Below are positions 5,083 to 13,614 of a DNA stretch of 13,614 bases, piece by piece. Below the pieces are notes generated by a model. That model made no database searches. It worked only from the letters and a program-made list of their open reading frames with translations, and was not told the DNA's origin. The translations under genes and the position numbers were made by a program. Each line of letters starts with the position of its first letter. Positions within the stretch are counted from its first letter, which is position 1. Source of the stretch: an uncultured Deferribacteres bacterium (GTDB lineage Bacteria > Zhuqueibacterota > Zhuqueibacteria > Zhuqueibacterales > Geothermadaptataceae); assembly GCA_964014485.1 (NCBI GenBank), contig CAXHAT010000205.1, forward strand, positions 1 through 13,614, read 5' to 3'.

Positions 5083-6257
5083 ACGCTGTTTCGTCGGGAA
5101 GAATCGCCATTCTTGCGCAATTTTGCAACGGCTTTTGCGAAAATTTTTACGATAGCGTCGACTTCTTCGGCGGTGGTGAACTGCCCGGTTGAAAATCGAA
5201 TCGTGCCCATGCCGTAATCTATCGGCGTTTTCATGGCTTTTAGCGCGGCGGAGAGTTCAATCGCATCGGCGTCGCAGGCGGAACCGGCAGAAACCGCAAC
5301 TTGCTCTCCGGTTTCCATCAAAAGATCGGTAGAACGCACATTTCGAAACCCCAAGCTCAAAGTGTTTGGCAAACGATTTTCCGGATGGCCGTTTAATCGA
5401 ACGTCGGCAATGCTTTCCTCCAGTCCTTCGTGCAGGCGATCACGCATATTTTTTAGGTGCTCCGCTCCGCCTGCTTGCAATTTTTTTGAGGCCAAATCAC
5501 AGGCCTTGCCAAGCCCGACGATTTGCAGCGCATTTTCCGTCCCCGCCCGGCGACCGTTTTCATGACCTGCGCCATGAATCAGCGGTTCGAATTTCACGCC
5601 TTTGCGACAATAAAGTGCGCCGACGCCCTTCGAGGCATAAAGCTTGTGCCCTGCCAGCGAAAGAAAATCAACGCCAAGTTCTTGCACGTCGCAAGTGATT
5701 TTTCCAGCGGATTGAGCGGCGTCGGTATGCAGCAAAACGCCGTTTTTTCGGCAGATGTGAGAAATATCCCGGATCGGCTGAATCGAGCCGACTTCGTTGT
5801 TGGCGTGCATAACGCTGACGATCACGGTCTCCGGAGTAATTGCACGCGTGACGTCTTCCGGAGCGACAACGCCGAAGCGATCCACCGGCAAGTATGTCAC
5901 TTTCCACCCAAGTTTTTCGAGAAATTTGCAGACCTGAATCGTCGCCGGATGCTCGACGGACGAGGTGATAACGTGCTTGCGTTTTTCAACATTTGCGAAC
6001 GCCGCACCCTTGATCGCCGTGTTGTTCGATTCGCTGCCGCCGCTCGTAAAAACGATTTCCGACGGCTCGCAATTGAGCAAGGCCGCAACTTGCCCGCGCG
6101 CTTTTTTGATTGCCGAACGAACTTCGCGGCCAAAAATGTGGCTGCTGGACGGGTTGCCGAAAAACTGCGCCAGAAAAGGCTGCATCGCTTGCGCAACATC
6201 CGGGTGGACGGGCGTCGTGGCGTTGTAATCCAGGTAAATCGGCTTCATCGATATCAC
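5079..6257 (-). CDS. iscS: Cysteine desulfurase, IscS/NifS-like (class V PLP enzyme)
   Basis: IYLDYNATTP, GNPSS, FTSGGSESNN, MHANNEVG, HTDAAQ, PLP lysine in AGHK, RAGTEN and catalytic Cys in SAGSAC. The start is either GTG 6257 (GTGA overlap with the GH16 stop) or ATG 6248. No isc scaffold genes are adjacent, so the symbol indicates family only. Confidence 0.93.
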   Translation of the reverse strand: MISMKPIYLDYNATTPVHPDVAQAMQPFLAQFFGNPSSSHIFGREVRSAIKKARGQVAALLNCEPSEIVFTSGGSESNNTAIKGAAFANVEKRKHVITSSVEHPATIQVCKFLEKLGWKVTYLPVDRFGVVAPEDVTRAITPETVIVSVMHANNEVGSIQPIRDISHICRKNGVLLHTDAAQSAGKITCDVQELGVDFLSLAGHKLYASKGVGALYCRKGVKFEPLIHGAGHENGRRAGTENALQIVGLGKACDLASKKLQAGGAEHLKNMRDRLHEGLEESIADVRLNGHPENRLPNTLSLGFRNVRSTDLLMETGEQVAVSAGSACDADAIELSAALKAMKTPIDYGMGTIRFSTGQFTTAEEVDAIVKIFAKAVAKLRKNGDSSRRNSV

Positions 6258-7096
6258 TCGGCCTTCTCGTAAACACGAACGTAATCGATCTCTAATGTTT
6301 GAGGAAACTGCGTGGTCTCATCGGGATTTCCTGGCCAGTTCCCGCCGACAGCAAGATTCAACAAAATGTGAAATCGCTGATTAAACGGCGCGGGGAACGG
6401 ATGCCCTTCCGTACTCCACTCTTTTTGAGTTTGGTAATGCTTGCCGTCTACCGACCAACGAATTTCCCCTTCCTCCCATTCTATGGAAAAAACATGAAAA
6501 TCCTGCGAAAATGTTCCAACAGACAGCGTGTAGGATCCGCCGGTAAATTTATTTTTGGGCCAGGCTGCGCCATAATGCAGCGTCCCGTGAACTTTGTTGG
6601 GCTCATGGCCAACCAGTTCCATGACATCGATTTCGCCGCTGGCCGCCCAGCCGCCGTAGACGTTATCCGTCGGCAGCATCCAGATCGCCGGCCAGATTCC
6701 CTGCCCGAAAGGCAGTTTGGCGCGCACTTCGATACGCCCGTACTTCCAATCGCCCTTGTTCAGCGTGCGAAGACGCGCGGAAGTGTATTCTCGCGTCCCT
6801 TCAACATCGGTGTACGTTTCACGCCGCGCCTGAATGACAAGAACGCCGTCTTTTACAAAAGAATTCTCCCGCCGTGCCGTGTAATATTGCAATTCATTAT
6901 TTCCGCCGCCCCAAGCGTTGACTTCGTGGCTCCACTTCGTCGGATCAATATTAACGCCGTCAAATTCATCCTGCCAAACGAGACTCCAGCCGTCAATTTC
7001 CCACTCCGAGGTTTCCTCGGTTTGGCTGATTGTTTTTTCACTGCAAGCAGTGAGTAAGAACAGGATGCTCAAGCACGTAAGAAAACGTCTGCACAT
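6254..7096 (-). CDS. Glycoside hydrolase family 16 (laminarinase/beta-1,3-glucanase-like) lipoprotein
   Basis: WQDEFDG, GGGNNELQYY, YTSARL, WPAIWML, catalytic EIDVME, LLNLAVGG and IDYVRVY. Lipobox LTAC follows a basic/hydrophobic leader. AAGGAG lies 6 nt before ATG 7096. Confidence 0.95.
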   Translation of the reverse strand: MCRRFLTCLSILFLLTACSEKTISQTEETSEWEIDGWSLVWQDEFDGVNIDPTKWSHEVNAWGGGNNELQYYTARRENSFVKDGVLVIQARRETYTDVEGTREYTSARLRTLNKGDWKYGRIEVRAKLPFGQGIWPAIWMLPTDNVYGGWAASGEIDVMELVGHEPNKVHGTLHYGAAWPKNKFTGGSYTLSVGTFSQDFHVFSIEWEEGEIRWSVDGKHYQTQKEWSTEGHPFPAPFNQRFHILLNLAVGGNWPGNPDETTQFPQTLEIDYVRVYEKAE

Positions 7097-7345
7097 TCGG
7101 AACTCCTTGGTCAAAAAGTATTCAAAAATTGTTCAGGTAAAGTATCGCCAAAGCAGGTTTTGAGGAAGGACATTTCTTTAAAAAAAACAAGGAATGCGCA
7201 ACAAAGATGTGAATTGCGTTATCGGGAGTGCGATGATTTATCGTCGCCAGTGACGGCAAACGCACTCAAATGCTGAAGCGATTGACTCCGAATCTAGCGC
7301 ATTTTGGTAAAGCAGACAATCATGAGGAAGCCATGCGACGGTCGA

Positions 7346-8710
7346 TTAATTACGTTCCTGCGTATTCAGTTTCGCCAGTTCGAGCATCAGTTTTTCAAGC
7401 TCTTTGTAAAAATCTTCTTCGGCCATTTCGCTTTTCTTCTCCTGCAGCGCCTTGACTTTAGCGAGAATAGCTTGCTTTTCCGGCGAGGCTGGCTGAGCCG
7501 CCGCACGCGTTGAATCGCTCGTACCGGCAAATTGCGCGCGACGTTCTTGTTGGAAATAAAAGCTTGAAGCGAGAGCGCCGTCTCCGGTGAGCAAGTCCGG
7601 CGTTTCGGAACCAACCCCGTCGCCGTCATCGTCGAGCAGAGGATGCTCTGCGCGCAATTCTTTTTTCTGATCGTACTCGCTGATGAGATTATCACGGGTA
7701 AAAATGAACGCTTCCGTCACGGAAAGTATGCCGTCTTTGTTGAGATCGGCTTCGTTGTCTTTTCGCAGGGCGTCGATGAAATGATCGGCAAAGCGAGTAA
7801 TATTTCGTTCCATGCCGTTCCGCGTCGCCGTGACGATAACGCGCTCTTCCCGGCTCAATTTTTCAAGAAAAGGGCCGCTGGCGCTGGCCATGTTGATGAA
7901 GAGCACTTTTTGTGTCGGCAGTTTGTCGAAAACATTGGCGAAATCAACATCGCGCAGGTCGGGGCCGGTGATGTTAACTTTCGCCCATTCGCCGTCGAAG
8001 GAGCCGTGCCCGAGTATGAAAACGAGCAGTTGGTCGTCGGTCTTCAGATCTTTTGACAATTCTTCAAAGCGAGTCTGGATATTTTGAGCGGTGTTTTCCG
8101 GGTGGAGGTCAAAAGTGTCCGGCGCTTGCTCAGTAAATAAGAAAACATCGTCTTTTTCATAACTATAGCGATCTATCAGAAGGGCGGAAATCATCGCTCC
8201 TTGTTCGAAAAAACGCTCGACAAACTCAATCTCGCCGCCGGAGCCCGCGATAATAACGACTTTTTTGTCGGCTTTTAAAGCGGAAATCTGAAACAGAAAA
8301 ACAAGCGCGGTAACTAAAAACGCAAAGCGTTTAAAAATCCCCCCTTTGAAGGGGACTAGATGGATGTAACGAGCATTGCCGACTGGTGAACAGTCGACGC
8401 GATGCTCCGAATTTTCGATTTTTTTTCGTCCGAAAGCAGTCGTTTTCCTAAACGCAGACGCTGCTACATCCTTCCGCCCTCCCCTTTTAGAGGCAGGCTT
8501 TTCCTTTTTGCTCGAAAGCGCCGCTTCTGTCATACCCGCCTGCACGGGTATCCAGCTTTTGGGCGCCGTTGTCTGGATACCCGCCTGCGCGGGTATGACA
8601 CGGCGGATTACGCTCAGATTTTCAAAAAACCTACCCTTGAAAGCCTGCATCTCTTCTAAGGGGGGAGTTTTCGGCGCTTTGCAAGCTTTATTCTTATAAA
8701 AATTCATCAT
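7346..8710 (-). CDS. Exported caspase/peptidase C13-fold protein lacking the catalytic Cys, with a repeat-derived N-terminal extension
   Basis: VVIIAGSGG, FILGHGS, FINMASASG, IVTAT and an EF-hand-like DLNKDGILSVTE. Signal-like segment KRFAFLVTALVFLFQISALKA. ATG 8710 overlaps the upstream TGA (ATGA). The start is uncertain. Confidence 0.7.
   Translation of the reverse strand: MMNFYKNKACKAPKTPPLEEMQAFKGRFFENLSVIRRVIPAQAGIQTTAPKSWIPVQAGMTEAALSSKKEKPASKRGGRKDVAASAFRKTTAFGRKKIENSEHRVDCSPVGNARYIHLVPFKGGIFKRFAFLVTALVFLFQISALKADKKVVIIAGSGGEIEFVERFFEQGAMISALLIDRYSYEKDDVFLFTEQAPDTFDLHPENTAQNIQTRFEELSKDLKTDDQLLVFILGHGSFDGEWAKVNITGPDLRDVDFANVFDKLPTQKVLFINMASASGPFLEKLSREERVIVTATRNGMERNITRFADHFIDALRKDNEADLNKDGILSVTEAFIFTRDNLISEYDQKKELRAEHPLLDDDGDGVGSETPDLLTGDGALASSFYFQQERRAQFAGTSDSTRAAAQPASPEKQAILAKVKALQEKKSEMAEEDFYKELEKLMLELAKLNTQERN
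8335..8501. repeat. Degenerate inverted pair of CCCCTTTGAAGGGG...GGATGT repeats enclosing a further hairpin
   Basis: 8335-8370 AAATCCCCCCTTTGAAGGGGACTAGATGGATGTAAC resembles the reverse complement of 8463-8501, AAAGCCTGCCTCTAAAAGGGGAGGGCGGAAGGATGTAGC. An internal hairpin GAGCATTGCCGACTG/CAGTCGACGCGATGCTC lies at 8371-8407. Confidence 0.55.
8528..8600. repeat. Inverted REP-like doublet (two ATACCC-N8-GGGTAT palindromes)
   Basis: 8528-8555 TGTCATACCCGCCTGCACGGGTATCCAG and 8573-8600 CTGGATACCCGCCTGCGCGGGTATGACA are inverted copies with a 17-nt spacer. Same family as 994-1020. Confidence 0.9.
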
Positions 8711-11076
8711 GACAATCCTTTCGCTCTGCGCACAAACCACTCTATACCCAGCAACAAAATGACGGCAATAAACACCGCCGGAGAATCCCACAAATCGCGT
8801 TCAACGGTTTTGGAGTAACTGGATTCCGCGACGACCAACTCGTCCGCAATGTCTTCAGCGTCGGTAATGTGCTGGTACTTGCCGCTGGAAATTTCAGCAA
8901 TGCGCTGCAATAAATTCTCACGCAAATCCGGGCGTGCAAACTCGCGCTGTTCATCGCCGACATAAAACGCCGCTGTACTCGCGCCAAGAAACCGGCCTTT
9001 CGCGTCATTCGCAAAAACTTCAATTTCATACAAACCCTCGCGATCCGGGACGAATGAGGCTTTGTAGTGGCCGCTGTTTTCTAAATCCGGTACTGCATTC
9101 GCGGGAACAACGCCGCCAACGGGGGGATCGCCTTGCCCGGGCGCGTCAGCGCTTTTCGCGGCAAATGAAAACGGGGTGCGAACTTGTACGGAAATGTTGG
9201 CGTCCCGCACGGCTTCGTAGGTGCTGTCCAAAACGCTGATTTGGATCGAGACGCTTTCGGCAAGGCCGTAATTGTCTTTTGGAATCGTAGCTTCAACAGG
9301 CTCAGGGGCGCTCATTGCTAACCATCGTCCGACTTGCCGCCAAAAGCGTTCGTGACTCATGTCTTCCGAGTGCATCCGCATTTGCCACGCCCAGGTTGAA
9401 GAAGTGGCAATAACCATCGAGCGGCCTCGCCCATATCGCTGCTCGGCAATGATAATTTTTTCGCGATTCGGCTGGCTTAACGGATGGATGCCAAGAACAG
9501 TGGCTCCGGGCTTGGCCGCCCCCACCGGGTTGTAGCCCTTAAGGTCGGCGATGTCGAGCCAGTTTTGCCGATTCGATTTCAAATCATTGGCGAGCTTCAG
9601 CAGCGGCGAGCGAAGACCTTCCGGAGTCAATTGTAATTTAAACGGCGCGATGCGCATTTGGGGCGGGGCGGCTTTGGTCGCTTCTTCCGCCCCCAAAAGA
9701 TAGACCGGCAGAGCTTCCGCGGCCGGGCTGTTTTGCCAACCGCCTTGCGAAAAAGCGCTCGGCCCGCCAATCATCAAAAGCCCGCCGCCGCGCACGGAGA
9801 CAAAATCACGAATCCACTCGTGCTGCCGGTCGGTCAAAACATCAGCGGCCATGCTCCCGATGATGAGCGCATCGTAGGAAAAAAGCTCACTGCGCGTTTT
9901 CGGGAAGCCGTCCGGGTACATGCCTTCGTTATCTATACCTTGGCCGTACCACTTGTTCGTGCCAGTGGCAACCATTGACGACATTTTTAAGTTTTTGTCC
10001 AATTCAATGGCGCGCTTGATATATTTGAAATCTTGCGGGTGCAGCGTTTCAATATAAAAAACTTTACCGACGCGCTCTTCGTTTTTGACCAGAAAATTTT
10101 TCCGGTTGTTGACTTCGATCACTTCTCCGGCGTCCGACTTGACCCGCGCTGTATAGAGCAAATTGCCTTTGCGCGTTGGCTTATGGCCGAGTTCGACACG
10201 GGTGTATTTTTTCTCGAGCTGAACTTGCTTTTTCTGCACCACGCGGCCTTCCTCAAGCAACTCTACGTCTACGCTTTTGCCTTCCATACCCTTTGCATGA
10301 ATCAGCGCCGCCATATCGACGATGTCATTTTCCAGAACGGAGCGAGAAGAAGAAACGCTGGTCAATTGTACGTCGTTGGCCACCTGCGCACCGACGCCGA
10401 CGGTGTAAATTGGAATGCCCAGATTCTTGAACAGTGCAGCGGCTTCAAGCGGATCGCCGTCACGTCGGGATTCGCTGTCTTCCGTCGTTTGCTTTGAAAC
10501 CTGTGCGCCGTCGGAGGCGAGAATAACGGCGGAAACAGGATAGGTTTGTGCCTGGCGTTCCGCAAATTGCAGCGCTTTGACGATTTCCGAATAGGCGCCT
10601 TCCGCGAGCATCGAATCACCCTGTTGCAAAGGGCGCGTCTCATCATTGAAAGTATAGCTGAGAACGTTGAAGTTTTCCTGCAGCGCATCAAAAACGCCGT
10701 CAGCGCCTTCGCCGTTGTACCAATTATTAATTTGTTGAATCCGACTCGGTTCGCCGGAATTGTCTTCCAGCGACATGCTCGAAGAATTGTCCAACAAGAC
10801 GACAACCGAGCCTTTCTTGGGAACAATTGAGGTCACGCTGATGAACGGTTCCGCGATGGCGAGCAAGACGAGCGTAATCGCCAAAGCCTTGATTGCAGCC
10901 AACGAAAACCGAAACAGGCGCGTGGTCGGCGCAATCGTTCGGCTGTAGATAAAAGCGATAACCGCAAATCCAACGACGACGCCAATCGCTAGCCACATGA
11001 AGCCTGGCAAGTAGCGAAAAGTCCACTCTCCATTCTCGTAGACGGCGGGGCTGTATTTAAATAAAAACTCAAACAT
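8707..11076 (-). CDS. Membrane-anchored VWA plus glutamine-amidotransferase-like (DUF1355/GATase1-like) domain protein
   Basis: Two N-terminal TM helices, MIDAS-like LLDNSSSM and ILASDG, IPIYTVGVG, FVSVRGGGLLMIGG, RYGRGRSMV...W.W.M...HERFW, and a C-terminal TM ending IEWFVRR..GL. Confidence 0.8.
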   Translation of the reverse strand: MFEFLFKYSPAVYENGEWTFRYLPGFMWLAIGVVVGFAVIAFIYSRTIAPTTRLFRFSLAAIKALAITLVLLAIAEPFISVTSIVPKKGSVVVLLDNSSSMSLEDNSGEPSRIQQINNWYNGEGADGVFDALQENFNVLSYTFNDETRPLQQGDSMLAEGAYSEIVKALQFAERQAQTYPVSAVILASDGAQVSKQTTEDSESRRDGDPLEAAALFKNLGIPIYTVGVGAQVANDVQLTSVSSSRSVLENDIVDMAALIHAKGMEGKSVDVELLEEGRVVQKKQVQLEKKYTRVELGHKPTRKGNLLYTARVKSDAGEVIEVNNRKNFLVKNEERVGKVFYIETLHPQDFKYIKRAIELDKNLKMSSMVATGTNKWYGQGIDNEGMYPDGFPKTRSELFSYDALIIGSMAADVLTDRQHEWIRDFVSVRGGGLLMIGGPSAFSQGGWQNSPAAEALPVYLLGAEEATKAAPPQMRIAPFKLQLTPEGLRSPLLKLANDLKSNRQNWLDIADLKGYNPVGAAKPGATVLGIHPLSQPNREKIIIAEQRYGRGRSMVIATSSTWAWQMRMHSEDMSHERFWRQVGRWLAMSAPEPVEATIPKDNYGLAESVSIQISVLDSTYEAVRDANISVQVRTPFSFAAKSADAPGQGDPPVGGVVPANAVPDLENSGHYKASFVPDREGLYEIEVFANDAKGRFLGASTAAFYVGDEQREFARPDLRENLLQRIAEISSGKYQHITDAEDIADELVVAESSYSKTVERDLWDSPAVFIAVILLLGIEWFVRRAKGLS

Positions 11077-11080
11077 GGTT

Positions 11081-11135
11081 TTAGGTGTTTAGGCTGTTAG
11101 GCCGTTAGGTGTTTAGGCTGTAGACTATTAGGTTT
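11081..11135 (+). repeat. Tandem array of seven TTAGGnnn units; contains the left arm of a 26-bp inverted repeat
   Basis: TTAGGTGT TTAGGCTG TTAGGCCG TTAGGTGT TTAGGCTG TAGACTA TTAGGTTT. Bases 11110-11135 are the perfect reverse complement of 11508-11533. Confidence 0.95.
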
Positions 11136-11496
11136 ATCTGGAGCAACGCAGATATCTGATCAAAGCTGCGAGTACTTTTTCGGTTTCTGTTATTTTTGCT
11201 TCAAAGGAAATTGTGCTTTCATGACCAGTTAAATATTCTAATCTGACGGCAAGACTGAATTGATAGTGTAATTCACGCAGTGAAGCGAAAGCAATTTCTA
11301 AAAAGCGTAAGTATTCAGTTTGACTTGCCCGCGCACAGCCTTCAACAATGTTTGAAGGAACCGATACCGCCGCTCTCCGCATCTGGGAAGTAAGACCATA
11401 CATCTCCGATTTTGGGAAATTCCGAGTTATTCGATAAATCATAATCGCCAATTCATCCGTCAGCTCAAACGCCCGTAACTTTCTATGGTCTCTCAT
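11134..11496 (-). CDS. Four helix bundle protein (23S rRNA intervening-sequence protein family, TIGR02436/PF05635-like)
   Basis: 120 aa with FPKSEMYGLTSQMRRAAVSVPSNIVEGCAR...YLRFLEIAFASLREL.YQ, the hallmark motif of the family. SD-like AGGGGGT lies upstream of the ATG. Confidence 0.95.
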   Translation of the reverse strand: MRDHRKLRAFELTDELAIMIYRITRNFPKSEMYGLTSQMRRAAVSVPSNIVEGCARASQTEYLRFLEIAFASLRELHYQFSLAVRLEYLTGHESTISFEAKITETEKVLAALIRYLRCSR

Positions 11497-11499
11497 CTT

Positions 11500-11538
11500 A
11501 CCCCCTAAAACCTAATAGTCTACAGCCTAAACAACCTA
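11500..11538 (-). repeat. Tandem TAGG-core units forming the right arm of the inverted repeat
   Basis: The minus strand reads TAGGTTGT TTAGGCTG TAGACTA TTAGGTTT TAGGGGGT. The first TAG is the stop codon of the upstream gene. Confidence 0.95.
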
Positions 11539-13614
11539 CTTTCCTTTCTTGGTTTCAGCAAGCTTGCGATAATATTCTTCAATCAACGCTCGAAATTCCG
11601 GTGGAAGCGGCTGATCTTTCACCGTTTGCAAGGCTTCATCGCCGCGCATGAGTTGCAATTGCGCTTCGATTTCAATTTCTATCCGTCGCAACGGATCAAC
11701 AATTTGCTCGGCGATTTCCTGCAATCTTTTAGGATCGCCGCCGGTGAAGGTGCGCAGATAGCCGCTCAGGTGAACGGAAAGATCGCTGGTCATTTGCTCT
11801 AATTGTTCAAAGCGTCCGCTTTCATCCTGCTCGGAATTCTGCTTCAAGTCGTCTCGCAATTGCTGCAATCTCTGCTTTGCGCCCCAGAGCGATTCGCGTA
11901 ATTCGGAAGCGTCTTCTTTACTCAAGCGGCCGCCTCCGCCGCCTTGCGGTCTGCCGGAGTCTCGCTGCTGTGATTGACCTTCTTCGCCGGATTTTCCACG
12001 CTCGCCTTGTTGGCCGGATTGAGACTCATTTTCGCCTTGCGACTCGCCTTCCTGCTCGCCCTGTGATTGACCTTGTTGTTCGCCTTGCTGCTGTCCGCTT
12101 TCACTGTTTTCAGATTGACCCTGCCCTTGTTGCTTACCCAATTTTTCACGAAGCTTTTCTTCCAGGTCACTGCGCACGTCCTGGAGTTCATCTCGCGCCG
12201 AAGCTAATTTTTCCTGCGAAGATTCGCCAAGACCGTCAGCCAGCTTTTGCGCTTGCTTCGCGCCTTCTTCCAAATCTTCGGCAACGGACTCTTGGAGTAA
12301 TTGCGCGCTGCTGAAGCGTCCGCGCTGTAGTGAAAGATCACTGCGCTGCATTTTGTCCAGCGTCTCCGCTTCCTGCAGCGACTTGGAAAGGTCGCGCATT
12401 TTTTGTTGAAATTCCGGATTTTCCTCGGCGTTGGTTGCGATTTCGCGCATATCATTCATGGCGTTTTCAAGCTTGTCGCGCGCCGCTTGCTGCTGGTCGC
12501 GTTGTCTCTGCGCCTCAGCGATTTGTTCGCGCAGCGCCTCGCGTTTTTCGCGCGTACTGCCGCCGCCCGCCATAATAGAATCAACGGCTTTTTGCAGTCC
12601 GCCGCTCTGCTCGGCAAGTCGTTGCTGCTGCTCGGCAAGATTCTGAAAATCCTGGCTCAAATTGTTGAGTTCATTCTTGGCGGCGTCGCGCTGCGTCTTT
12701 TTGAGACGATCCTCCAGCTTTTTCAAACGATCTAACGCCTGCTGCCCGCTCGCTGCTGCGTTTTGCGGATTGCCTTTTTGCAGATCGCGACTCGATTGAT
12801 TCATCGCGTCAGTCGCTTGTTGCAGATCATTCGCTGCGTCGTTGGCGGCTTGTTGCTGCTTCTGCAACGAATTCTCAACTTGCTGCATCGCCTCCTGAAC
12901 GTCGCGATTCAACTGCTCCTGCTGACGCTGCAACTTTTTGATCTCGCGCTTCTTTTCTTCCTCTTCCAGATCGCGCTGCGACAACATGCGATTCTGTTCG
13001 TTGAGGTTTTGCTGACGACGCGCTAATTCCTTGATCTCTTGCAGCGCATCATTCACCGCCTGCTGCTCTTGAGCGCGATCTCCTTGCTCCAACGACTCAT
13101 ATTTATTGCGCAGCTTGTCTAACTCATCCTGAAACAGACGCGAAAGATCATCGGTATTCTGTTGCGCGCCGCCCCCGCCGCCTCCGCTCTGCGACATTTG
13201 CAAAACGCGTTCGTCGTTGAGAGAATTGGCTTTCATCAAATGATGATACGCCGTTCTTTCCGGCTTCAAAGCGGCTTTGAGAGAATCTTGCGCCAACAAT
13301 TCCTGCGCTTCCTTCATAGCGTCGCGCGCAAGTTCGAATTCCTTTTGCACTTTTTCGTCCGAATCGCCGACAAAACCCATACGCATGTTCATCATTTTAA
13401 TCACGTCCGCAACCGAATCATGCAAATTTTTCTGAGCGTCGTGAATTTTTTCCGTCGATCTCTTTAATTCGTCTTCCGAAATTTCGTCCTCGCGCTGCAA
13501 AAGCTTTTGCGTCGCGGAAATAATGTCGCGCTGGTAGAGGTGGAAATCTTCTCCGCCGGAACCGCCGCCGCCCCCTCCGCCGCCGCCCTGGCTGGTTTGA
13601 GCGCGATAGATCTC
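11536..13614 (-). CDS. 5'-truncated long Gln/Glu-rich coiled-coil protein, DUF4175-like
   Basis: The frame stays open past TTG 13500 to the window edge (EIYRAQTSQGGGGGGGGGSGGEDFHLYQRDIISATQKL). It has extended helical Q/E/K-rich repeats, poly-Gly linkers, a Q/G/E/S low-complexity tract and C-terminal PPEFRALIEEYYRKLA. Confidence 0.75.
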   Translation of the reverse strand, partial: EIYRAQTSQGGGGGGGGGSGGEDFHLYQRDIISATQKLLQREDEISEDELKRSTEKIHDAQKNLHDSVADVIKMMNMRMGFVGDSDEKVQKEFELARDAMKEAQELLAQDSLKAALKPERTAYHHLMKANSLNDERVLQMSQSGGGGGGAQQNTDDLSRLFQDELDKLRNKYESLEQGDRAQEQQAVNDALQEIKELARRQQNLNEQNRMLSQRDLEEEEKKREIKKLQRQQEQLNRDVQEAMQQVENSLQKQQQAANDAANDLQQATDAMNQSSRDLQKGNPQNAAASGQQALDRLKKLEDRLKKTQRDAAKNELNNLSQDFQNLAEQQQRLAEQSGGLQKAVDSIMAGGGSTREKREALREQIAEAQRQRDQQQAARDKLENAMNDMREIATNAEENPEFQQKMRDLSKSLQEAETLDKMQRSDLSLQRGRFSSAQLLQESVAEDLEEGAKQAQKLADGLGESSQEKLASARDELQDVRSDLEEKLREKLGKQQGQGQSENSESGQQQGEQQGQSQGEQEGESQGENESQSGQQGERGKSGEEGQSQQRDSGRPQGGGGGRLSKEDASELRESLWGAKQRLQQLRDDLKQNSEQDESGRFEQLEQMTSDLSVHLSGYLRTFTGGDPKRLQEIAEQIVDPLRRIEIEIEAQLQLMRGDEALQTVKDQPLPPEFRALIEEYYRKLAETKKGK

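Follow-up and report, generated by a model that had tools for sequence, protein, structure and literature searches.

A four-helix-bundle gene looped between inverted TAGGCTG-type arrays at an operon junction: a probable member of a widespread family of hairpin cassettes

Introduction

To our knowledge, the PF05635/TIGR02436 proteins, which are among the commonest small families of no known function, are discussed almost solely in connection with intervening sequences (IVSs) in 23S rRNA or with the Avd protein of diversity-generating retroelements (DGRs). We analysed one such gene on contig CAXHAT010000205.1 of an uncultured Deferribacteres bacterium. This contig is the window, by which we mean the whole 13,614-nt stretch and to which all positions refer; G000 is its own genome, and handles in C, G and L denote contigs, genomes and loci. 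The gene sits in the loop of an inverted repeat between two operon genes. We conclude that it probably represents a widespread hairpin cassette, composed of a PF05635/TIGR02436 gene within an inverted repeat of TAGGCTG units, which has been inserted in a conserved operon spacer.

The closest described systems are the 23S rRNA IVSs of Coxiella burnetii and Leptospira, in which an S23p open reading frame (ORF) occupies the loop of a terminal inverted repeat (TIR) stem of ~28 bp and for which an older hypothesis holds that ORF-bearing 23S IVSs are mobile elements (PMC4990558). Transposon termini and target duplications, both seen in relatives of our cassette, go unmentioned for 23S IVSs in the relevant passages of PMC4990558. 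The window cassette resembles these IVSs in having the same protein family in the loop, in the TIR stem (~28 bp in the IVSs) and in the heptamers before the ORF, and its 459 nt compare with 428-444 nt for the IVSs. The latter reside in helix 45 or 25 of 23S rRNA, whereas the window cassette lies between operon protein genes. Excision by RNase III is demonstrated for the IVSs, whereas the stem of the window cassette is predicted from sequence and computed fold.

Avd is an adaptor of nucleic acids and enzymes. It is homologous to the present four-helix-bundle family (PMC10053308), and the solved homologues 2GSC and 2RLD contain five chains each. The window differs from a DGR in having neither a reverse transcriptase match among the 12 ORFs scanned nor template/variable repeats, and in scoring below the cut-offs of the Avd models.

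Three further systems invite comparison. The mobile insertion cassette (MIC) is an established concept, and relatives of the window cassette are like MICs and miniature inverted-repeat transposable elements (MITEs) in their size (442-487 bp), inverted termini, 8-bp duplications and lack of a transposase, and in the bursts of internally deleted, gene-less derivatives that accompany them. They differ in their passenger, which is invariably one small gene kept by purifying selection, in their long sub-terminal inverted arrays of clade-specific 7-8-nt units, and in that the window copy and most members are end-less. In maize En/Spm, the element-encoded accessory protein TNPA binds sub-terminal repeat arrays. 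Inverted short-repeat arrays inside the termini and a non-transposase element gene are common to both and make TNPA our working analogy for a putative binding of the arms by the cassette protein; the two proteins share no homology. The short tandemly repeated repetitive (STRR) heptamers of cyanobacteria and the repetitive extragenic palindromes (REP) with their associated tyrosine transposases (RAYT) are abundant intergenic short repeats and palindromes. Shared features are intergenic 7-8-nt arrays and a small associated gene flanked by inverted copies; unlike REP/RAYT systems, the cassette has no tyrosine transposase and its units are specific to each four-helix-bundle clade. Our literature search found no publication on PF05635 genes as cargo of IS66-type cassettes or on their association with clade-specific arms.

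Results

The cassette (11077-11535) takes up the whole space between the stop codon of the upstream gene (11536-11538) and the start of the downstream gene (11076), and its sole ORF of at least 80 amino acids (aa) spans 11134-11496 on the minus strand (120 aa). In gene orientation, the features are as follows.

11536-13614, minus strand: upstream operon gene, 3' part, 692 aa, coiled-coil, open at the contig end; stop codon TAG at 11536-11538
11497-11538, minus strand: 5' arm in gene orientation, TAGGTTGTTTAGGCTGTAGACTATTAGGTTTTAGGGGGTAAG, with four TAGG-type units of 7-8 nt
11508-11533, unstranded: inverted-repeat core on the 5'-arm side, 26 nt, perfect, from the repeat search
11134-11496, minus strand: four-helix-bundle gene, 120 aa, PF05635/TIGR02436 by profile match
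11110-11135, unstranded: inverted-repeat core on the 3'-arm side, 26 nt, perfect, overlapping the ORF stop TAA at 11134-11136
11077-11109, minus strand: outer 3' arm with extra CCTAA-type units unpaired in the 5' arm, ending 2 nt before the downstream ATG
8707-11076, minus strand: downstream operon gene, 789 aa, GATase1_like with a weak VWA match, by profile match

The two 26-nt arms (11110-11135 and 11508-11533) are 100% complementary at a spacing of 372 nt. Pairing continues for 4 bp (11106-11109 with 11535-11538, read from the sequence) past a single unpaired base (11534) and takes in the stop TAG of the upstream neighbour (11536-11538, minus strand). A perfect 26-nt inverted repeat is expected by chance in ~800 nt at ~1e-10 (~3e5 position pairs × 4^-26). 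The arm score of the window is 50, and among 1,461 control small ORFs from the same genome 5 score at least 40 and 2 at least 52. Period-8 TTAGGnnn units occupy 11081-11121 and their complements make up the opposite arm. The first-pass annotation of this DNA had described the 26-bp repeat with its 4-bp extension across a 1-nt indel, the single 120-aa ORF with opposed TTAGGnnn arrays filling the entire intergenic gap, and a GC content below that of the flanks; all three descriptions hold, GC being 0.40-0.43 across 11000-11599 (300-nt windows) and 0.51-0.56 in both flanks. The 5' arm begins on the neighbour's stop codon and finishes in the Shine-Dalgarno sequence of the cassette gene (AGGGGG, 11501-11506). 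In the 3' arm, a 17-nt direct repeat (11081-11097 identical to 11105-11121, spacing 24) shows a recent slippage or duplication in the array (11081-11128) that is not mirrored in the 5' arm. Scans of the gene strand for promoters and terminators were negative, as was a comparison with Rfam, and 10800-11800 contains no rRNA match; protein-coding genes lie on both sides. The upstream gene matches PF13779 (DUF4175) weakly and below cut-off (E 3.6e-4).

Comparison with related genomes reveals that the cassette is an insertion and not an ancestral gene, because its flanking genes are adjacent in 16 of 19 relatives, separated by 5-164 nt and with no four-helix gene between them. Orthologues of the downstream gene were located in 33 of 41 genomes searched, a count that includes the window's own genome and two unpublished genomes, and the orthologue of the nearest relative is 56% identical. 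We fetched the junction from 20 relatives, leaving out the unpublished genomes, and one contig ended within it, which left 19. The comparison of presence and absence with an intact empty site is made at family or order distance only, and it bears out the insertion that the first-pass annotation had proposed. The empty junctions carry no TAGGCTG-type arrays. In G025, a different four-helix gene (124 aa, 28% identity) with inverted arrays of its own (GGTTAGCC/GGCAAAC type) occupies the junction, and in G013 (L005) and G028 (L020) it holds an unrelated gene for a secreted, dienelactone-hydrolase-like protein of ~266 aa. This operon junction has been hit independently at least twice. DNA contigs from three runs of one study, one of them perhaps the source, include X1, which is identical across the cassette, and X2 and X3, which are short flank pieces; among these contigs nothing bridges the empty site, and there is no variant, joint or loose end.

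Other features were seen near these junctions. The G025 contig (L007, C61:74070-77400) has a C111-type four-helix gene ~1.2 kb further along (C61:78625-79077, 65% identity, two in-frame TAA codons), and the hydrolase-like gene of L005 is followed by a foldback of 8-nt AAACGTAA/TTACGTTT units. Period-15 repeats (AATCATTCTGACTTC-like) recur in G000 (C300:191-219, C316:824-852, C326:3606-3634), and the 'empty' junction of G014 (L013, 163 nt) holds an AATCATT-containing hairpin resembling them.

With the single window protein as query, scans of metagenomes and genomes returned 599 and 603 candidates, among which 506 and 520, respectively, were confirmed as relatives. We analysed the best 80 of each set (67-77% protein identity); five genome loci duplicate metagenome loci, which leaves about 155. 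Titled records come from at least 12 phyla, with hosts in candidate division KSB1, Bacteroidota, Desulfobacterota, Planctomycetota, Acidobacteriota, Verrucomicrobiota, Lentisphaerota, Ignavibacteriota, Spirochaetota, Calditrichota, Nitrospirota, Gammaproteobacteria and Patescibacteria. Members L161 and L165 of the clade come from two complete genomes of Desulfosarcina, a cultivable carrier. The genes that neighbour the window cassette are found in 0 of 80 metagenome loci. At 120 loci with at least 400 nt on either side, two or more TAGGCTG-like units lie upstream in 73 and two or more CAGCCTA-like units downstream in 70, compared with 0 of 120 in the control zones for each. The unit profile is T.78, A.98, G.96, G.69, C.87, T.88, G.71. 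Upstream and downstream arms are complementary (median aligned arm 26 nt, 90% identity), with a median score of 31 versus 15 in a reversed, non-complemented control. Crude calling of both neighbours at 52 loci orients the cassette gene with both in 35 and against both in 3, and by the same crude calling the median gap is ~65 nt per side, the arms usually adjoining the neighbours.

A second protein clade has arrays of a different unit. All eight C111-type genes examined (the genome's own and seven from published genomes of the same order, 57-67% identical) have TGGA(G/T)TNN arrays upstream. The unit motif is constant within a protein clade and different between clades, and the suggestion that unit type tracks protein clade is thus borne out in two clades (TAGGCTG and TGGAGTnn). 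Since a non-coding motif is kept at this depth and the second clade keeps another, the unit sequence itself must be constrained, beyond complementarity. Its conservation despite saturated synonymous sites points to sequence-specific recognition, most simply, as judged from sequence conservation, by the cassette's own protein. Together with the difference between clades, this lends indirect support to the suggestion of the first-pass annotation that the protein may recognise the repeats.

A minority of relatives carry a conserved, non-repeat 14-nt terminus, GTAACT(A/G)CTCAGGT (GTAACTnCTCAGGT), together with its complement. When GTAACTACTCAGGT was searched for in the 80 metagenome loci (at most 4 substitutions), 19 had it at both ends, 6 at the left end alone, 16 at the right end alone and 39 at neither. 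Two-ended elements are 442-487 bp long. In the 18 two-ended metagenome loci with enough flank, the octamers outside the ends are identical at 8/8 positions in seven and at 6/8 in three, whereas 306 between-locus control pairs gave none at 8/8 and one at 7/8. L075 and L087, on separate contigs of one metagenome, are 98.1% identical across exactly the 473-nt element and have different duplications; the homology of L024/L043, L047/L079 and L037/L078 likewise spans the element and stops. The homology of near-identical copies stops exactly at the termini. An unanchored scan of 146 loci for direct repeats of 5-10 nt abutting an inverted repeat of at least 10/12 was not above displaced controls (8-mers: 4 vs 3, 3 and 1), and its low-complexity filter discarded several true A/T-rich duplications; our evidence for target duplications is therefore the terminus-anchored test. 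With the terminus called at no more than 3 substitutions, the median DNA identity to the nearest neighbour falls from 0.962 in the 19 loci with both termini to 0.913 in the 21 with one and 0.832 in the 103 with none (both versus none, Mann-Whitney p = 8.5e-6, the loci not being independent). The gradient is consistent with intact elements that multiplied in recent bursts and lost their ends afterwards.

The termini resemble those of a known transposon group. ISDge4, described as an actively transposing single-ORF element of the ISBst12 group in the IS66 family, has the TIRs GTGACTACTCAGCA and GTAACTGCTCAGCA and an 8-bp direct repeat (PMC12898284); one of these TIRs is 12/14 identical to GTAACTnCTCAGGT. 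In two complete genomes with clade members, single-ORF IS66-family elements of 1,564-1,570 bp end in GTAAGCATTCACGGGG and GTAAGCGTTCAGGGGG and show perfect 8-bp duplications in 4 of 4 copies having one clear boundary. The first-pass annotation had described a transposase-less unit without target duplication. This is correct for the window copy, in which sequence inspection and a repeat search found no target duplication and the window ORFs scanned include no recombinase gene, but intact-ended relatives do have duplications of 8 bp, next to IS66/ISBst12-type termini. The 13-nt core of the terminus, CTCAGGTGGATAG, is also identical to the D-arm region of two G000 tRNA genes (C94:~3680 and C102:~2730), a likeness that concerns the termini of loci such as L083; we treated a tRNA link as coincidence, and the terminus cannot form a D-stem.

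Aligned with ten canonical elements, the window cassette is homologous across both arms and the gene. Homology starts at the AGGT of the left terminus, with the neighbour's stop TAG aligned on the terminus CAG. The window copy is without ACCTGAGTAGTTAC at the right, lacks the outer ~10 nt at both ends and, in the 3' arm, carries 24 nt that canonical elements do not have. G000 contains 18 clusters of the TAGGCTG family, including gene-less foldbacks. Sequence shared exactly with the window arms occurs at C24:23755-23779 (25 nt), C159:11097-11117 (21 nt) and C306:5598-5618 (21 nt), all of them gene-less foldbacks or solo arms, and the C159 foldback starts directly on a TAG stop codon, as does the window cassette. 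These shared stretches speak for activity of the family in this lineage. In G031, a genome of the same class, the gene-less copies still contain the ORF's start codon and its final ~15 nt, and thus derive from gene-bearing ones; one terminus is often present too. Only one partial gene-bearing copy was found there (C340:3989-4294, 69% identity).

Solo CAGCCTAA-type arrays lie 1-6 nt before the ATG of other G000 genes (C55:18002-18038, C57:37567-37603, C55:10733-10762 and C55:14423-14444), and the window offers a parallel in CCTAAAACC followed by ATG. Such arrays could be cassette remnants or leaders.

The window protein matches PF05635 with 110 bits (cut-off 33.8, E 8.6e-32) and TIGR02436 with 115.2 bits (cut-off 24, E 1.6e-33), and residues 2-112 match PDB entry 2gsc_A (E 4.2e-24); 2rld_A is matched as well, and each entry has 5 chains. 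2GSC is published as five four-helix bundles, and an S23p-family homologue from Xanthomonas is described as pentameric (PMC4990558, PMC10053308). A PADLOC search for anti-phage defence returned 0 families at E <= 0.01. Comparison of the window gene with its ten closest relatives gave a pN of 0.16-0.17 and a pS of 0.79-0.97 (saturated), the median dN/dS among relatives is 0.12 (65 unsaturated pairs), and internal stops interrupt 2 of 154 ORFs. Purifying selection on the cassette ORF is strong.

The assembly to which the window belongs, as one entire contig, comprises 8.4 Mb in 465 contigs, and eight stretches of it match TIGR02436. The match on C135 is a real Avd and the sole one without repeat arms. 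As the first-pass annotation had anticipated, all seven non-DGR genes have short-period flanks; read by eye, each lies between arrays of its own unit (CAAAGG, CGGAGGA, CTGTGAG, GAGCAAT, GTGAGAGGG, TGGAATnn and TTAGGnnn). Periodicity reaches the 99th percentile of controls on both sides in 5/7, and on one side within 130 nt for C9 (at a contig end) and C58. Arm complementarity is above the 99th percentile of the 1,461 control small ORFs in 4 of the 8 TIGR02436 genes. Among 1,536 small ORFs, 14 score at least 28, and 4 of the 14 are TIGR02436 genes. A role of the units as a stop-codon 'insulator', with TAG or TAA in each unit and in all three frames, was considered and rejected: it fits the window clade but fails for the CAAAGG and CGGAGGA units.

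Tandem arrays are abundant in G000 (2,324 after merging), and 318 are not covered by open frames of at least 100 aa; period 8 (69 arrays) and period 7 (64 arrays) dominate among these. Intergenic arrays with a period of 7 or 8 or a multiple number 128, of which 41 are at contig ends. An inverted partner lies within 1.5 kb of 48 of the 128, mostly 5-40 nt away with no gene between. The 7- and 8-nt arrays appear to be a main cause of assembly fragmentation, and further cassette genes may lie in assembly gaps. Perfect arrays of these periods end contigs at, for example, C307:1-110, C70:1-90, C256:9263-9341, C9:1-55 and C250:1-54, and two TIGR02436 genes sit at array-terminated contig ends.

Two other findings in G000 concern different systems. 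The stretch C135:5262-10638 looks like a complete DGR. Both the Avd-like gene (8403-8789) and the gene for a 582-aa reverse transcriptase with a YVDD motif (6615-8363) are on the minus strand, and two target-like genes (5262-6494 and 8842-10638) resemble each other in their lectin-like C termini. Other small ORFs with strongly complementary flanks lie at C241:9803-10348, C27:34972-35508 and C180:14073-14438; judged by eye from their translations, two are Y1/REP-associated-transposase-like, and one is a DUF559-like endonuclease with 75-nt, GC-rich palindromic arms.

Discussion

The best supported interpretation is that the canonical form of this family is a transposase-less mobile hairpin cassette with ISBst12-type ends, of which the window holds an end-less copy. 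Gene and arms form a horizontally spreading unit because empty sites exist, because the arms are shared in at least 12 phyla and because homology ends at the element ends. Genes and arms of the cassette clade have moved together, by horizontal transfer, into many phyla, and the idea of a horizontally acquired unit inserted at junctions of genes, put forward in the first-pass annotation, is upheld by the 16 of 19 empty sites and by the unrelated contexts of ~155 relatives. The family would move as DNA, through a DDE transposase of the ISBst12 type that is provided in trans. The window copy, which seems to have lost the outer ~10 nt of both ends, is probably immobile by this route.

Several observations weigh against mobility through ISBst12-type ends as a full account. 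Both GTAAC termini and a target duplication are missing from the window copy, and its nearest sampled relative is only 70% identical in DNA. Termini are missing from both sides in 39/80 metagenome and 56/80 genome loci, and the arms-only majority shows no duplication at any length from 5 to 10 nt. As most members are end-less and without duplication, a second spreading route or rapid loss of the ends must be assumed. The genome set is weaker than the metagenome set, with both termini in 8/80 loci and a perfect duplication in one of seven new two-ended loci, and related loci within both collections mean that our counts overstate independent events. We found no transposase with exactly the cassette's terminus. 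In G000, 12-mer matches to the terminus number 2 versus ~8 expected by chance, so that no such terminus is present, and the IS66-family transposase is an end-less fragment only. G031 gave 38 array matches (e.g. L197-L206), and the copies examined are internally deleted and gene-less; PF03050 has no match in this 99%-complete assembly, nor in G093. Within the window's phylum, the canonical terminus has 4 matches in 3 of 167 genomes, too rare to find an autonomous partner.

A role as mRNA intervening sequence is possible, although we think it rather unlikely to be the explanation of the arms. By analogy with 23S IVSs, the arms would form a ~30-bp stem in the transcript of the operon, and cleavage of this stem by RNase III could free the cassette RNA and keep the insertion non-polar; such processing is compatible with DNA mobility. 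The predicted RNA fold of 11060-11560 on the minus strand does pair the arms (-147.1 kcal/mol, z = -4.4, equalled by 0/100 shuffles), as the first-pass annotation had foreseen, and the closed stem would leave ~33 nt between upstream stop and downstream start, which compares with 11-164 nt at empty junctions in the same family. The 23S IVS of Coxiella provides a precedent, for which PMC4990558 describes a 28-bp stem that RNase III cuts midway and heptamers that precede the S23p ORF, and cassette genes are co-oriented with the host operon in 35 loci versus 3. Constraint on an mRNA stem predicts an excess of G·U among arm mismatches on the sense strand. We observed 54 G·U versus 60 A·C mismatches at 78 loci, and 26 versus 36 (p = 0.25) among isolated mismatches in 80 distinct arms, and the unit sequence is conserved beyond mere complementarity. 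The intervening-sequence proposal of the first-pass annotation is thus not supported so far: fold and geometry fit, but G·U pairs are not in excess.

It is improbable that the arms are genome-wide repeats generated by slippage and hairpin repair, with the gene inserted into or captured by a pre-existing foldback. The abundance of intergenic period-7/8 arrays in G000, of which 48 of 128 have a nearby inverted partner and mostly no gene between, would suit such an origin, as would the gene-less foldbacks among the 18 TAGGCTG-type clusters. Yet one unit family flanks one protein clade in at least 12 phyla while a second clade has its own unit, the gene-less copies of G031 retain both extremities of the ORF, and the empty junctions of relatives are free of TAGGCTG-type arrays.

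A vertically inherited operon accessory gene or a DGR remnant (an Avd gene) is disfavoured and in our view highly improbable: G000 does contain a real DGR, on C135, and the window protein has weak Avd similarity, but this similarity is below the curated cut-offs (NF033474, 36.1 bits versus 80; PF22296, 27.8 bits versus 40), the 12 window ORFs scanned include no reverse transcriptase, the window cassette gene is missing at this junction in 18/19 relatives, and the real Avd of C135 has no arms.

For the mobile hairpin cassette, gene expression and protein function can be sketched. The window gene, for which no promoter or terminator is predicted, probably depends on read-through transcription from the host operon, and its translation would use the gene's own Shine-Dalgarno sequence, which lies in the last repeat unit. 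As suggested by motif conservation, the repeat units of the cassette's own arms are the most likely target of the presumably pentameric protein. It may serve as an adaptor, encoded by the element, that brings the two ends together or keeps them so, or may bind the transcript stem. More speculatively, and with considerable doubt, PF05635 proteins at large might be clade-specific repeat readers whose ring pairs the arrays, in DNA or in the transcript, and recruits an enzyme from outside the cassette, either an IS66/ISBst12-type transposase or RNase III. Such an adaptor role would parallel the recruitment of the DGR reverse transcriptase by Avd.

The window copy is an ordinary end-less member of its family, and its value lies in being a clean example in a conserved gene pair with many empty-site comparators. 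Outside rRNA, the PF05635 gene travels as a compact unit with clade-specific arms, which turns the vague idea of a 'selfish element' into one that is testable through repeat binding, mobilisation in trans and stem processing. Part of the short intergenic arrays at which assemblies break up (41 contig ends here) may have originated from this family. If PF05635 proteins are indeed repeat readers, many unexplained intergenic heptamer and octamer arrays and foldbacks would be PF05635 footprints in the form of gene-less derivatives, and this very large family would constitute a natural library of short-repeat-binding specificities.

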